Of a stretch of 64,000 bases of DNA, positions 47,041 through 51,629 are shown piece after piece. Position 1 is the first letter of the stretch. Each line of letters opens with the position of its first letter. This stretch comes from an uncultured Candidatus Binatia bacterium (lineage in GTDB: Bacteria > Desulfobacterota > Binatia > UBA9968 > CAXXLF01): contig OZ244621.1 in the NCBI GenBank assembly GCA_965218425.1, positions 832,001 to 896,000 on the forward strand. The letters are read 5' to 3'. The notes beneath the pieces are model-generated. The model was not told where the DNA came from. It did no database searches and saw only the letters and a program-made list of their open reading frames with translations. Both the position numbers and the translations under genes were made by a program.

Positions 47041-47497
47041 ATAAGTATGATAATCATACTTTTGCAGAATATCCAAGCGTTGTATCGACATGATCTCATG
47101 CACGGGAAGTAATTCCGCAAACGTAAAATTGACGATTGTTATACCGTGGCGGGAGTATGATGAGGGTCCAGGATTGTAGCATCACGCCTGCGGAACAAGA
47201 ATCATAGCACACGGCGCAAAGGGCAAAGCGCCAATAGCTATCAGCCATCATCTTTCAGCTCTCAGCTAGTTTCGACAACAAACTCAAGACACCAACCGCA
47301 GGTTCACGTAGACTAATGTAGACGATTATTTGTTCGCCGCAGCGGCGCAAAGCGACCGGAACACATAAATCGCATAGAGCATAACGCAACGCGCTCAGGA
47401 CTGAGTGTTGAGGACGAATATTGAGCCTGGGGTCGCATATGTAAATAAACCCCGGAATATTGCATCGGGAGGCTGAAACCACCATAATGTGCCCTAT

Positions 47498-48277
47498 ATG
47501 GAACTCGTTTGGCTCAAGGTCCCGCAATGGGAACAGAGAGAAGGATTCATTCATGGCTTTTTCGGCCGTAAGGGAGGTAAAAGCCTCGGGATCTATGCCA
47601 GTTTGAATCTCTCCGTGCGCGTCGGCGACGACATTCAGACCGTCAAGGACAACCTCTGTGATCTCAAGAAGGCGGTGGGACTTCATGACGAGAGGGTTGT
47701 GACCATGACCCAGATGCACAAAGACCATATCACTGAAGTTACGGATAAACGCACCAAAGACGCCGGCGCGGCGGATGGCATGATTACCGAACAAAAGGAA
47801 GTTTTTCTCGGGGTGCTCACGGCTGACTGCGTCCCCATCCTCATCTCCGTTCCCTCCCGCAGGTTAACTGCGGTGGTCCATGCAGGATGGCGCGGCACCT
47901 TAGCAGGCATCACACCCAAAATGGTTAATTACCTTCGGGAGCGATTCCAAGTGGCACCAGAGTCTGTGGAAGTGGCCCTGGGGCCGGCCATCGGTCCATG
48001 TTGTTACGAGGTTCAAGGCGATGTCACCGAACCCCTACTGGCAAAATGGAAGGGGCTGGCGGAGGCATCCCTCCATAAAAAGAGCGGCAGCTACTTTGCC
48101 GACTTGAAAAGCCTTAACGCCCTGCAATTCAAAGAGGCAGGGATACCACCGGACCAAGTATTTTCCATCGGCCCTTGCACCGCCTGCACCCCTGACGAAT
48201 TCTTTTCCTACCGCCGTGATGGCTATGGAGTCAAAGAAGACACTGGCCGCCAGCTCGGCTTTGCCGGTTGGCTTTGA
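47498..48277 (+). CDS. pgeF: YfiH/PgeF family purine nucleoside phosphorylase
   Basis: SLNL, QMH, TADCVP, HAGWRG, GPAIGPCCYEV, FFSYRR. Confidence 0.93.
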   Translation: MELVWLKVPQWEQREGFIHGFFGRKGGKSLGIYASLNLSVRVGDDIQTVKDNLCDLKKAVGLHDERVVTMTQMHKDHITEVTDKRTKDAGAADGMITEQKEVFLGVLTADCVPILISVPSRRLTAVVHAGWRGTLAGITPKMVNYLRERFQVAPESVEVALGPAIGPCCYEVQGDVTEPLLAKWKGLAEASLHKKSGSYFADLKSLNALQFKEAGIPPDQVFSIGPCTACTPDEFFSYRRDGYGVKEDTGRQLGFAGWL

Positions 48278-48580: not shown

Positions 48581-49432
48581 TCACTCCAGATCTTCCGTCA
48601 GGTCCCTGAGCACGATAATCTCCGGCCCTGCCTTGAGGGTTTCTTTGGATAGTCGGACTCCGTTTCCCTCCATGTTTCGCACCCGTGAAAAGTTCTGCGC
48701 GAATTGCTCTGCGTACCCCTCCCAACGGTAGTGATAAGGAATAACGATTTTGGGTTTCACCGAAGCGACGATCTTTAGCGCATCCTCGGTGGAAATCCGA
48801 TAACCTCCCTGTCCGAGGGGAACTAGAAGAACATCGATTTTACCCATCATTTTGACCTGCGTCTCGTTGAGCAAGTGACCCAAATCCCCAAGATGAGCAA
48901 CGAAAACTCCATCCATGGAGACCACAAAGACGGTATTCTTCCCTCGAAGCATGCCCATCTCGCTGTCATGGTAAGTGGGCAGCGTGAAAAATGAGACGTC
49001 GCGGATGGTCTTGTGCAAGCGGGTCCAGTTCCCATTTTCCATGCTGAGTCCGTGAAGTACGATGGGGTTCCCGCTTGCCATCCAGATAAAGCTGTGGTTT
49101 CCGCCGAAATGGCTCGTGGTCACCACGTGGGGCGAGATATCCATTGGCGGGCTTCCCCTGCCATGGGGATCCATCAGGACCTTCGTCCCGCGCGATGAGG
49201 TAAGATAAAATGCCGAATGACCCAACCACTGGATGGTCAAATTCCGCGGGCCAGATGCTGCCGGGACAACTCGAAAAGGCCAATGGCCAGCCACTTCTGA
49301 CTCGTGGCAAAAGGCACGGGCTAGCTGCGGCAGGAAAAGAACAAGAGCCGCAACAAAAAATAGACGGAAAACCCCTTTGCCCAGATAATGGGGTAAACTC
49401 TGTTTGCGATTTATGAACACGGCAACTCTCAA
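48581..49432 (-). CDS. Metallo-beta-lactamase-fold hydrolase, probably exported
   Basis: WLGHSAF, DP, TSHFGGNH, HLGDLGH, PYHY; signal-like N-terminus; start uncertain. Confidence 0.85.
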   Translation of the reverse strand: MRVAVFINRKQSLPHYLGKGVFRLFFVAALVLFLPQLARAFCHESEVAGHWPFRVVPAASGPRNLTIQWLGHSAFYLTSSRGTKVLMDPHGRGSPPMDISPHVVTTSHFGGNHSFIWMASGNPIVLHGLSMENGNWTRLHKTIRDVSFFTLPTYHDSEMGMLRGKNTVFVVSMDGVFVAHLGDLGHLLNETQVKMMGKIDVLLVPLGQGGYRISTEDALKIVASVKPKIVIPYHYRWEGYAEQFAQNFSRVRNMEGNGVRLSKETLKAGPEIIVLRDLTEDLE

Positions 49433-49633
49433 CCATCGACCAAGGGCCGACAGTTCAACACTGAAAATAACTTCCAGATACTCATAGATATGATTGAGGA
49501 GACTATTTGATTTATTAAGGACAAATCAATTGCCCCAGGCTTCCCGCAACGACCATGCCGGTGCTTTGACCAGCTCTCCTTGGGGAGCGCGTCGAGCCAA
49601 GAAGGAGGGAGATCGCAAAGGAATCATAAAAAG

Positions 49634-49662
49634 TTGACATCCGAGGGCCTCTCCCGTAAACT
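49634..49662 (+). promoter_or_regulatory. Near-consensus sigma70 promoter
   Basis: TTGACA (49634-49639), 17 nt, TAAACT (49657-49662). Confidence 0.8.
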
Positions 49663-49693
49663 GGCCCCAGCAGAGAAAGGAGGTGGTCCAGCA

Positions 49694-49735
49694 ATGATAG
49701 ATAATTATTGTGACTGCGAGGTGCCTGAGACTTAG
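49694..49735 (+). CDS. 13-aa peptide MIDNYCDCEVPET (putative)
   Basis: ATG just downstream of a maximal Shine-Dalgarno sequence; TAG at 49733-49735; too short for the ORF track. Confidence 0.5.
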   Translation: MIDNYCDCEVPET

Positions 49736-49811
49736 GCTCCTAGCCAGTAATCCTAAGTAACCGCTTTTGGGGTTTGTGGCTTTGGAGCCGGGAATTCCAA
49801 TCAGCACACCG

Positions 49812-49850
49812 GGCCCTGGCCGAACATAAGTTTGGCCAGGGCCTTTTTTT
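49812..49850 (+). terminator. Rho-independent terminator
   Basis: ggccctggccgaac-ataa-gtttggccagggcc followed by T7. Confidence 0.92.
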
Positions 49851-49857
49851 GTCTATT

Positions 49858-50478
49858 CTATTTAGGCGAGACTTTTTTTGGGGGAATACCCAATCGTTCA
49901 AGTACAAATCCTGCAGCGTTGCGCACTCTTGAATCGGTATCGTCCGAATTGGTTCTCATCAAAACGCTTAACACGTCGCCACTTAATTGAGCATGTTTGC
50001 TCAAGGCTGTCACGGCCGCCACTCGCACCAGTGGATCTGTATCCCCAAGGCACCGAAGTTGTAAGGACGGATCTCCAACACCCAGATCGCGTAGACAGTA
50101 TACCGCCATCCTTCTCTGAACCGGGCTCTCAGAATTTAAGAGATTGCAGACGAGGGTGGGGATTCTCGGGTCATTGTTCCCCAGGCGGATGAGGAGTTGC
50201 AGAGTAGCCCACCGGATATCGGGGTCTTCGCTCCCAAGAGCCGCCGTGAGAACCTCCAGGCATGAGGAGGAAGGTTGTGTGAGCTGGCCAAGCGTATAGG
50301 CCACGGGCCAGCGTTTTTTCGACGAAACCTCCTGGAAGAGTTTGCTTAAAGACTCTCGAATTTCGGGCCTTTCATTTCCAAGGGCAACCAGAGAGTCTAC
50401 GGCCCTTCGAACCACAGCCCGATCCGAGTGAGCCAGGGACTCCATGAGGGAGGCAATATCTCTATCCGCTGGATTCAC
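49858..50478 (-). CDS. HEAT-repeat protein
   Basis: Repeated D.D..VR..A..AL units. Confidence 0.85.
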   Translation of the reverse strand: MNPADRDIASLMESLAHSDRAVVRRAVDSLVALGNERPEIRESLSKLFQEVSSKKRWPVAYTLGQLTQPSSSCLEVLTAALGSEDPDIRWATLQLLIRLGNNDPRIPTLVCNLLNSESPVQRRMAVYCLRDLGVGDPSLQLRCLGDTDPLVRVAAVTALSKHAQLSGDVLSVLMRTNSDDTDSRVRNAAGFVLERLGIPPKKVSPK

Positions 50479-50778: not shown

Positions 50779-51629
50779 CTAAATGAGATGGGACCGAGCG
50801 GTCACTTTATTCGCGGCACCACGCTTGTGGTTCCTAAGGTCTCTAAGGCGAGCCGGGTAATCCGTAACCACCCCGTCCACTCCAAGTTCAATCAACTGTT
50901 CCATCTCCTCGGTCTGGTTGATGGTCCAGGCATGAACTTCAATTCCAAATTCGTGCGCGGCCTTCACGGTCGCCTCCGTGATGAGCCTTAACCCCTCATA
51001 CTCCCGAGGCACCTGAAGGGCCTCGCCCGCTGGAGTAAAGCTGTCGGATTTTTGCTCCCAAACCCAGTTCAGAAACGCGGCCGCTTCTCCGTAGGAAAAA
51101 CCGGTGGCAATGGTGAGACGCTGTTCACGGATTTGACTACGAATCTCCGTCATTATTTTGTCCTTCTCCGTAGCCAAAAGGATTGCCTCCTCTTTGCGAA
51201 ACCGTTTAATGCTCGTAACCAAGCTTTCAATGAAGACGGGGCCGGCATCCTTGATCTCGATGGTGGCTTTGACCTTGGGAAAAGTGGTAAAAAATTCCTC
51301 CAGTGTAGGAATGGTTATTTTTTTTCTCTATAAGGATAAGTCTTTCCACCATCCGGTGTAAACCGATAACCGGCGTCTAATTTCTTCAATTCTTTTAGAC
51401 TCCACTGCTGGACTTCGCCTTGCCCGTTTGTGGTTCGCTCCAGAGTCGAGTCATGGAAAATCACAATTTCTCCGTTTTTGGTCTCCCGCACGTCAATCTC
51501 AATGAAGTCCGCGCCATCGGTGAGGGCCTTTTCGAAAGAAACAAGAGTATTTTCCGGTGCCATCCCGGCGGCCCCCCGGTGCCCGATAATCCTAAACTTA
51601 ACGGCATCAAAAAAAGGAGACTTCGCCAC
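50779..51629 (-). pseudogene. Glycerophosphodiester phosphodiesterase split by a 1-nt shift in an A8 run
   Basis: GHRGA, PENT, EIDV, HD in the first ORF; IPTLEE, IEIK, WTIN, GVDGVVTDYP in the second; break at 51318-51325. Confidence 0.85.

Follow-up and report, generated by a model that had tools for sequence, protein, structure and literature searches.

The window analyzed here is a 64,000-nucleotide (nt) stretch of the genome of an uncultured Candidatus Binatia bacterium (GenBank assembly GCA_965218425.1, contig OZ244621.1, positions 832,001 to 896,000 of the forward strand), and our subject is a short intergenic locus within it. Between two genes of the minus strand, encoding an MBL-fold hydrolase and a HEAT-repeat protein, the plus strand carries in a row a promoter, an exceptionally long complement of the 3' end of 16S rRNA, a 13-codon open reading frame (ORF), a hairpin and an intrinsic terminator (Table 1). 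This arrangement had been noticed in an earlier reading of the window made without database searches (hereafter the sequence-only reading); every one of its parts was recovered where that reading had placed it, with the terminator stem now counted as 15 bp, and so was the opposite orientation of both neighbors. The comparative evidence indicates that the locus is a conserved stand-alone small RNA (sRNA) of ~180 nt with a maximal ribosome-binding site and a micro-ORF. We further interpret it, at somewhat better than even confidence, as the host's single copy of a cross-phylum sRNA family whose members would dock ribosomes and be remodeled by translation.

Within the host's order we read the host locus together with 29 relatives, and all 30 loci keep the promoter, the sequence GAAAGGAGGTGGTC, an ORF of 11-14 codons and a terminator. 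The promoter of the window agrees with the consensus at 10/12 positions. A promoter scan is by itself not significant (2 promoter-like sites versus 1.8 expected from shuffles), and such scan statistics alone mean little; the promoter is credible because a TTGAC[AT]-17/18-TAnnnT box lies 12-14 nt 5' of the rRNA-complementary tract (GAAAGG) in 30/30 order loci. The predicted 183-nt RNA folds with a free energy of -83.1 kcal/mol (z = -6.2), a value that none of 200 shuffled sequences attained. In the minimum-free-energy fold, the base of the hairpin that follows the ORF is formed by ggctcc (49735-49740) and ggagcc (49784-49789).

Table 1. Features of the small-RNA locus and its flanking genes, in window coordinates
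Feature	Position	Strand	Basis or remark
-35 box TTGACA	49634-49639	+	read directly in sequence
-10 box TAAACT, 17-nt spacer	49657-49662	+	read directly in sequence
Predicted transcription start (A)	49669	+	inferred, 7 nt past the -10 box; Rfam alignment starts there
P0 5' strand GCAG	49670-49673	+	pairs with CUGC 49714-49717; same helix given by RNAalifold
Maximal Shine-Dalgarno tract AGAAAGGAGGTGGTCCAGC	49674-49692	+	19-nt complement of the host 16S 3' end, one G-U
Micro-ORF, 13 codons + TAG, peptide MIDNYCDCEVPET	49694-49735	+	ATG 49694, stop 49733-49735; frame conserved
P0 3' strand CUGC, overlapping the Cys codon	49714-49717	+	RNAalifold; leader pairing counts
GAGGUG (codons E-V), Shine-Dalgarno-like hexamer 9 nt 5' of stop	49718-49723	+	kept in all members read
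P2 5' strand GGUGCCUGA, within the last ORF codons	49720-49728	+	minimum-free-energy fold; cross-phylum covariation
Long imperfect hairpin (Ha + inner stems) from the stop-codon G	49735-49789	+	fold; homologous Ha covaries in 21 loci
Candidate pseudoknot strand UUGGGGUU	49767-49774	+	by eye; would pair with 49793-49800, competes with inner stem of the minimum-free-energy fold
AAUUCC(AA) block, candidate pseudoknot 3' strand	49793-49800	+	AAUYCC-like block in most of 46 aligned sequences
P2 3' strand UCAGCACACC, immediately 5' of terminator	49801-49810	+	minimum-free-energy fold; cross-phylum covariation
Intrinsic terminator: 15-bp stem (49811-49844), 4-nt loop, T7	49811-49851	+	terminator hairpin in 30/30 order loci
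MBL-fold hydrolase	48581-49432	-	flanking gene
HEAT-repeat protein	49858-50478	-	flanking gene, convergent with the small RNA

The host genome has a single 16S rRNA gene, the 3' end of which reads ...GCGGCTGGATCACCTCCTTTCT. The Shine-Dalgarno (SD) tract aligns with it over 19 contiguous pairs, one of them G-U, with a predicted duplex energy of -35.4 kcal/mol versus -8.7 for GGAGG alone; the pairing beyond AGGAGGT, which the sequence-only reading had derived from the common bacterial 16S 3' end, is thus borne out by the rRNA of this very genome. When every GGAGG of the 4.46-Mb genome was scanned on either strand, no other site equaled the tract in the length of its contiguous 16S complement, the antisense of the 16S gene itself excepted; next come one site of 15 nt and seven of 14 nt. 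The 15-nt runner-up, GGAGGTGGTCCAGTC, lies outside the window (G000:C1:4288322, minus strand). Overall, these comparisons support the proposal that the unit stands alone and is designed to engage the 30S subunit by means of its exceptional 16S complement.

Within the order GAAAGGAGGTGGTC is invariant (30/30 loci), and the last four bases of the tract, CAGC, are variable. With the host 16S tail assumed for all loci (the tracts of the relatives were compared with this tail, not with each member's own), the potential pairing amounts to 15 nt in 12/30 loci and to 16-19 nt in the other 18. The stretch kept in all 30 ends at GGUC, which we take, from E. coli numbering, to be about the last single-stranded base before helix 45. 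The extended pairing through GTCCAGC that had been proposed to reach into this helix therefore holds for part of the order, the helix-45-invading portion being lost in the 12 loci with only 15 nt. Beyond the order, the CCAGC extension recurs in several lineages and is not universal; it overlaps the helix P1 described below, and one family of the order (f3) has AAAA in its place. Some members from Rokubacteria- and Deltaproteobacteria-labeled genomes reach 20-21 nt of pairing (by eye). Three class-level relatives of the host carry GGAGGTGATCCAG, a perfect complement free of the G-U pair, and the wobble was ruled out on these grounds as a hallmark of the family. In two Ignavibacteriales-like loci (L152 and L134) the stop codon is followed by an anti-SD-like sequence, UCACUACCUCC or UCACUGCCUC, which could pair with the SD of the same RNA and is absent in the other lineages seen.

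A motif derived from the order loci (AAGGAGGTGGTC-N15-45-TGYGAGGTG), scanned over one genome per prokaryote species, returned at least 119 loci, and all counts for motif-found loci here and below are among the matches listed. The stop codon lies exactly 9 nt past the motif in 114 of these matches; four occur inside long unrelated ORFs and one ends with its locus. From 144 order-level and motif-found loci carrying the stop we derived 123 non-redundant SD-to-stop segments, and in 122 of them, among the matches listed, an ATG, GTG or TTG situated 0-9 nt past GGTC is in frame with, and open to, the conserved codon, as compared with 24 and 2 segments for the other two frames. A stop occupies the fixed position in every segment (TAG in 112, TGA in 6 and TAA in 5 of the 123), and the encoded peptides span 11-19 residues, 12 being the length in 77/123. 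Within the 30 order loci the 11-14-codon ORFs end in CEV[APT][EG]T-TAG, and all their length differences are multiples of three. The 13-codon frame reported by the sequence-only reading is thereby confirmed as a real, conserved ORF with interchangeable stops.

As the motif set was selected with AAGGAGGTGGTC and TGYGAGGTG, the bias-free samples are the BLASTN search of the order, the class-level relatives, and the searches of the phyla of the host and of Mycobacterium with a covariance model (R1) built from 46 diverse members, along with the loci which this model found. For an unbiased check of the ORF we used 20 lower-scoring, model-found actinobacterial loci. The pattern x-E-V, three codons, stop was present in 19 of the 20, the residue x being most often L (11 loci), followed by H and P (2 loci each) and by C, R, E and V (a single locus each); the twentieth locus (L168) has a 10-codon ORF with the same end point in a different frame relative to GGAGGUG. 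The stops in these 20 loci are TAG in 10, TGA in 9 and TAA in one, a distribution which ruled out a sensor of UAG specific for RF1, a candidate suggested by the prevalence of TAG in the motif-found set. The peptides of the three class-level relatives end in ...ICEVAAS, ...ICEVVTS and ...TCEVVSS. E-V is encoded by GAG-GUG in every locus read, never by a synonymous codon, which suggests that the constraint acts on the nucleotide sequence. There is free variation in the last three residues, and the N-terminal part differs among loci in both length and sequence. We conclude from these comparisons that what is conserved is the ORF as an ORF, namely its start, frame, length (mostly 12-14 codons) and stop, and not its amino-acid sequence. 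The tiny acidic CxC peptide which had been suggested as a possible product is not sustained by this evidence, as neither the second cysteine nor even the apparently conserved one is kept, the position x changing together with the RNA leader. A cysteine-sensing leader, a candidate raised by extra Cys codons, was ruled out, since 18 of the 19 model-found actinobacterial loci with x-E-V have another codon in place of that for Cys. The extra UGU of the host order sits in a sequence complementary to the start-codon region (by eye).

The codons that look conserved are, according to the comparative analysis of the fold, strands of three helices termed P0, P1 and P2. In P2, GGUG and the next 5-6 nt (the codons for V, x and x) pair with the sequence abutting the terminator (GGUGCCUGA with UCAGCACACC in the window). 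Compensatory pairs were found in GGUGGCUGC : GCAGCCACC, GGUGGCUAC : GUAGCCACC, GGUGGCCGC : GCGGCCACC, GGUGACCAC : GUGGUCACC, GGUGUCCGUC : GACGGACACC, GGUGGCUCG : CGAGCCACC and GGUGGCUGGG : CCCAGUCACC, the last of which matches an E-to-G change of the peptide by a change in the partner strand; the E-to-G change in L021 and L031 is compensated by the P2 partner. In a model-guided alignment of 97 loci, 82.6% of the P2 cells are paired and changes on both sides occur at 5/9 pairs, most of the unpaired cells being due to a bulge of Nitrospirales type. The P2 partner was chosen by duplex energy, which was wrong in several loci, and some partners were therefore set by hand. The covariation score of the whole structure is 0.208 versus 0.136 ± 0.005 in shuffles (0/500 reach it) and at most 0.071 for slid partners. 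The same trend was seen in a structure-blind MAFFT alignment (0.193 versus 0.137, with slid partners at most 0.079).

In P0, the extreme 5' 4-6 bases of the RNA, three bases ahead of the SD purine run, pair with the bases up to and including the G of GAG, as for example in CACA:UGUG, ACGCA:UGCG(A), CCAG:CUGG, CGUGAG:CUCACG and CCAGAG:CUCUGG. In the host order the helix is GCAG:CUGC, with the register shifted by one base. Among 58 unique leaders of other than Nitrospirales type (anchor-based comparison), 74.1% of the cells are paired versus 57.6 ± 2.5% in shuffles (0/500 reach it), with several pair types at each position, and in 15 unique leaders of Nitrospirales type each of the 4 positions is 87-93% paired when the register is shifted. 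The codon before E-V changes with the leader because P0 pairs the two. P1 is formed in Actinobacteria by GGUCC, directly 3' of the SD core, and GGACC, a few codons before GAGGUG (GUUCGG:CCGGAC in L173). The fold of the window itself pairs GUGGUC with GACUGC and places the AUG within an 8-bp stem.

The domain 3' of the ORF was analyzed in an alignment of 21 loci from family f2 of the order and from similar metagenome-assembled genomes (MAGs). In these loci helix Ha begins at the G of the stop codon, and the pairings counted were Ha, the inner hairpin GAAUC:GAUUC and the pseudoknot stem GGGG(AUUC):(GAAU)CCCC. The cells of these helices are paired at 93-94%, and 9 pairs have changed on both sides versus 3.1-3.6 ± 1.2 in shuffles (0/500 reach 9); slid partners give at most 59% paired. 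One pair of Ha is split between AU (10 loci) and GC (10 loci), and the GGGG(AUUC):(GAAU)CCCC pairing changes on both sides in the f2 and MAG loci. The corresponding pseudoknot of the window, UUGGGGUU : AAUUCCAA, is a candidate, recognized by eye and inferred from the homologues. The GGGGAUUC segment takes part in two partly exclusive pairings, each with compensatory changes. RNAalifold recovered only fragments of the fold from plain MAFFT alignments. A tRNA-like arrangement of a T-arm and an acceptor stem, composed of GGGGAUUC...GAAUCCCC and P2, was considered and dropped after ARAGORN had found no transfer-messenger RNA (tmRNA) or tRNA-like gene at positions 49400-50000. Whether the peptide sequence or only the RNA structure is conserved had been posed as a test by the sequence-only reading; the comparison shows constraint on the RNA pairing and not on the peptide sequence.

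At the gathering scores, Rfam gives no match anywhere in the window. A permissive search aligned the locus with RF02471 (Ms_IGR-5, described as "Actinobacteria sRNA") at 27.3 bits (E = 3.4e-4), below the gathering cut-off of 45; the alignment is colinear and full-length (model positions 1-184 of 184 against 49669-49850 of the plus strand), as it also is for L008, L022 and L157. Loci of Mycobacterium and Nocardiopsis that were found with the window-derived motif score 189.5 and 97.9 bits on RF02471 and are on this account true members, and other non-actinobacterial loci score 32.9-37.7 bits. From this gradation of scores we conclude that the window element is, as judged by homology, a distant, sub-threshold relative of RF02471 that the present Rfam model misses. 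The sequence-only reading did not recognize a named family, and there is one, Ms_IGR-5; the match to a described family is a formal one, since the function of that family is uncharacterized.

Ms_IGR-5 is the closest known relative of the element. Both have the same order of blocks, consisting of a 5' leader, GGAGGUGGUC, a short ORF, GAGGUG, 9 nt, a stop, a hairpin domain, AAUYCC, CAGnnCACC and a terminator, and both are stand-alone and mostly single-copy. On the other hand, the scope of Ms_IGR-5 is actinobacterial and the window's host belongs to another phylum; its start codon is mostly UUG (AUG in the window), and its 16S complement spans ~13-16 nt as compared with 19 nt. Relative to Ms_IGR-5, the window has a P0 shifted by one base, an internal loop in P2 and a longer 3' hairpin. 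None of P0, P1 and P2 is present in the consensus structure printed by Rfam for RF02471.

The openly accessible text of a study in M. smegmatis describes IGR-5 as a validated yet uncharacterized sRNA located between MSMEG_5794 and MSMEG_5795, with an NAD-capped 5' end at +1A (bioRxiv 10.1101/2021.12.14.472595). Further reports, as far as their accessible portions go, note IGR-5 again in cold-stress transcriptomes of M. smegmatis (PMC10454040), an RNA-seq-validated homologue in S. lividans (PMC8079986), an sRNA transcription unit in S. avermitilis (PMC8780764), and "significant ribosomal reads" on IGR-5 in M. abscessus and M. smegmatis (PMC4974804). We found no published description of the ORF, maximal SD, fold or cross-phylum spread of the family in openly accessible texts, supplements aside, and the peptide strings had no match in the searchable literature. 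The names ncRv0810-0812 were rejected, as they designate a different element, the Rv0810c leader. The main text of a paper on VapC4 stalling, supplements aside, does not mention the neighboring genes.

BLASTN detected the element in 37/40 genomes of the host order, the remaining three giving chance-level matches only. Record titles among the motif matches listed include many Mycobacterium and Mycolicibacterium as well as Gordonia, Nocardiopsis, Saccharopolyspora, Propionibacteriaceae and Streptosporangiaceae, and MAG labels, which may be wrong, include Rokubacteria, Binatia, Terriglobales, Solibacteraceae, Nitrospiria, Syntrophobacter(ales), Ignavibacteriales and Deltaproteobacteria, in addition to one Leptospira. 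The motif-set counts include one locus of an unpublished genome (L042, genome G043); three others carry the same Terriglobales label (L051, L088 and L132), so that nothing rests on L042 alone. Among L037, L087 and L086, MAGs titled Syntrophobacter(ales) encode peptides identical to those of families f2 and f3 of the host order, and a "Gammaproteobacteria" MAG has an element of mycobacterial type. Such odd labels likely reflect mis-binning or mislabeling, or else recent transfer.

R1 matches 97/100 of the loci supplied, the three misses being the three decoys; the groups of Mycobacterium/Nocardiopsis and of the window on which it was tested were both in its training alignment. In evenly drawn samples R1 found the element in 4/151 genomes of the host's phylum, all of them in the host's class (3/4 other class members; sample G046-G195), in 73/151 genomes of the phylum of a Mycobacterium genome (G041; 67/145 excluding unpublished genomes; sample G196-G345), in 106/121 genomes of the phylum of a Rokubacteria-labeled genome (103/118 excluding unpublished genomes), and in 46/121 genomes of the phylum to which G045 belongs, a genome with an element similar to that of an Ignavibacteriales-labeled MAG. 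These searches used the stricter filters of Infernal, so that a genome counted as negative may still hold the element; the R1 E-values are rough, and related sequences are not independent in the counts. The host genome has one copy and nearly all positive genomes have a single match, two being found only in G216 and G406. Ms_IGR-5, so far an actinobacterial sRNA of uncharacterized role, is much more widely distributed, the family having been found in ~40-90% of the sampled genomes in three phyla beyond the host's and in the host's class. Its members share a design that combines an SD using the whole free 16S tail, a micro-ORF of which nothing but the frame as such is conserved, helices to which the codons of this ORF contribute strands, and a pseudoknotted domain at the stop, and the Rfam model and consensus structure could be rebuilt from a broader alignment.

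How such an RNA might work can be outlined from its layout. The promoter would drive a terminator-ended RNA of ~180 nt composed of two folded halves. In the 5' half, P0 would join the extreme leader to the codon or codons before GAGGUG, and between P0 and P1, the latter seen also in the actinobacterial branch and in the window fold, the SD tract would be presented as a complement of the whole single-stranded 16S 3' tail, with the start codon in or beside the apical hairpin. In the 3' half, P2 would pair the last four codons of the ORF with the pre-terminator sequence, thus enclosing the hairpin/pseudoknot domain that starts at the stop. The maximal SD would capture 30S subunits; a docking or starting 30S would have to open P0 and P1, and a ribosome at the stop would already have opened P2 and the base of Ha. 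Since P0, P1, P2 and the base of the 3' domain would be melted by each round of translation, translation would toggle or reset the fold. A very strong SD may overcome local structure at the risk of trapping the subunit, for which the short ORF would offer a release route, and the product that matters would be the interaction of the RNA with the ribosome rather than the peptide. As to its effect downstream, the fold might operate in trans, recruit a factor or serve as a buffer of free 30S.

A terminating ribosome could in addition pair with GAGGUG, since this hexamer lies 9 nt before the stop; its part in the strands of P0 and P2 is also a full explanation of its presence. An invariant SD-like sequence at this place recalls the rRNA-tethering elements known from the internal SD of prfB and from the termination upstream ribosome-binding sites (TURBS) of caliciviruses. 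The window element differs from these in having neither a conserved frameshift product nor a downstream restart ORF, and its P0 and P2 strands may explain GAGGUG entirely.

Several points weigh against the docking and remodeling scheme. For this organism the locus is known from sequence comparison, a search for sequencing runs having listed none of RNA, and its Rfam score is below the gathering cut-off of the family. The invariance of the motif blocks in the motif-found set is circular, because the set was selected with them, and structure-imposed spacing could in principle mimic part of the frame signal. P0 is a short helix of 4-6 bp, with a one-base difference in register between leaders of Nitrospirales type and the others and with about a quarter of its cells unpaired; P1 is clear in Actinobacteria and ambiguous in the host order. 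The minimum-free-energy fold of the window has both the AUG and some of the SD in paired regions, so that translation could be low. We found no alternative fold that has a defined output, and we infer both the remodeling by translation and any downstream effect.

A more specific and rather speculative version, to which we assign a low probability, is a cross-phylum device that would read or buffer the pool of initiation-competent 30S subunits: the SD would capture them, the micro-ORF would be their only exit, by way of 70S formation, elongation over ~12 codons and termination, and their passages would flip the 3' domain between two states acting elsewhere. If true, this would amount to a ribosome-gated riboregulator of an undescribed kind and to a "test mRNA" provided by nature for the 3' end of 16S rRNA. 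Leader peptides are the known case of frames conserved for the act of translation and not for its product; a stand-alone, housekeeping-like RNA whose frame is kept for translation itself would be a new use of this idea.

Among the alternatives, the one that survives best, and which we nevertheless consider unlikely, is a non-coding RNA that binds or sequesters the 30S subunit, its long complement holding the 16S 3' tail and its ORF being incidental; the sequence-only reading had listed this possibility. The 19-nt complement, unequaled in length elsewhere in the genome, and the predicted energy of its duplex speak for it, as do the potential pairing of at least 15 nt kept throughout the order with the host tail assumed, the perfect complement in more distant class members, and the ribosome-protected reads reported on the homologue in the accessible text of PMC4974804. 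The exceptional complement thus stands, but a pure untranslated sponge fits poorly with the in-frame starts of 122/123 segments among the matches listed (24 and 2 in the other frames) and with the interchange of TAG, TGA and TAA at a fixed place, and the helix-45-invading part, as described above, is missing from 12/30 loci. In fact, GGUCC 3' of the SD core also pairs within the RNA as P1 (GGUCC:GGACC, or GUUCGG:CCGGAC in L173), so that its conservation need not reflect 16S pairing. A search of the literature found no rRNA-complementary sequestering sRNA of this kind.

It is slightly less probable still that the element is an orphan sensor, in which the pseudoknotted 3' domain would bind a small molecule or protein and the micro-ORF leader would read its state in the manner of an attenuator or riboswitch, in trans or by affecting RNA stability. 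A compact covarying 3' domain with conserved unpaired blocks (AAUYCC and a U-rich stretch before GGGG) directly after the stop would suit such a role, as would the two partly exclusive GGGGAUUC pairings, both with compensatory changes, and stand-alone sRNAs derived from attenuators are known. Leader-peptide attenuators, including rnTrpL/peTrpL of rhizobia, have in common with the window element a short ORF, the translation of which competes with helices, beside an intrinsic terminator. However, a co-oriented downstream gene is missing, the next gene (49858-50478) being convergent and the neighbors differing between phyla, and in place of a run of regulatory codons there are one or two Cys codons in the host order, replaced in nearly all model-found loci; tandem regulatory codons are absent. 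No antiterminator alternative was seen in the fold or by eye, which was not a systematic search, and there is no clue to a ligand.

A very strongly initiated mRNA with a tiny acidic Cys peptide as the functional molecule, also among the options offered by the sequence-only reading, appears improbable. It would account for the conservation of the ORF and for the cysteine content of the motif-found set (6.8% of residues in the variable part, with an extra Cys in 36/97 unique peptides among the matches listed), and a maximal SD would yield high output. Against this, the Cys gives way to L, H, P, R, E or V outside the motif-selected set in step with the RNA leader, the freely varying last three residues covary with the P2 partner, L168 keeps the ORF in another frame, and the N-terminal part is variable in length and sequence. 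The unvarying GAG-GUG of the loci read points to selection on nucleotides, and no modifying or export gene is a conserved neighbor. Dual-function sRNAs such as SgrS/SgrT, RNAIII/hld and SR1/SR1P have a conserved, active peptide and a separate base-pairing region. The window element resembles them as a terminator-ended small RNA with a short ORF kept open (122/123 segments among the matches listed), but differs in that its peptide is not conserved, the variable residues tracking the pairing and one member using another frame; its ORF overlaps the RNA's own helices and no pairing target is known. Overall, the element would work somewhat like a leader peptide coupled to RNA folding and recalls dual-function sRNAs in its design, but defining features of both are lacking. 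As for the known small-ORF elements, a type I toxin mRNA and tmRNA among them, they can practically be dismissed: the element has a small ORF, a structured RNA with one or more pseudoknots around it and its own terminator, but its 13-residue peptide MIDNYCDCEVPET is acidic and not hydrophobic, no toxin or antitoxin family of Rfam matches with an E-value limit as permissive as 10, the RNA occurs across phyla as a housekeeping-like single copy, and, unlike tmRNA, it has an SD and a start of its own and no tRNA-like domain by ARAGORN.

The conserved neighborhood was ruled out as a clue to the function of the docking RNA that we favor, as the genes differ between the host order, Actinobacteria and elsewhere. 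Typical neighbors in the order are a HEAT-repeat gene and pgeF (Cu-oxidase_4), and in Actinobacteria (Mycobacterium L154 and Nocardiopsis L155) a class-IV aminotransferase (PabC-like), a GCV_T/YgfZ-like gene and a nitrobindin-like gene (THAP4_heme-bd). The convergent HEAT-repeat gene recurs in 17 loci, which belong to families f1 and f2 and to similar MAGs. The terminator of the small RNA is probably a poor one for this gene, because on the minus strand the hairpin lacks a following T-run. In the window the Cu-oxidase_4 gene (PgeF/YfiH-type, 47489-48277, plus strand) is located two genes upstream; it is an order-wide neighbor in varying arrangements (also L007:531-1475 and L023:1716-3086); in family f2 it immediately precedes the small RNA on the same strand, and in family f3 it follows in convergent orientation. 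Beyond the HEAT-repeat gene, two adjacent minus-strand ORFs match the GDPD domain (PF03009), one its C-terminal part (50779-51222, profile positions 179-243) and the other its N-terminal part (51315-51629, profile positions 1-70), with the middle missing; the pair apparently represents a glycerophosphodiester phosphodiesterase gene that has been split, frameshifted or partly deleted.

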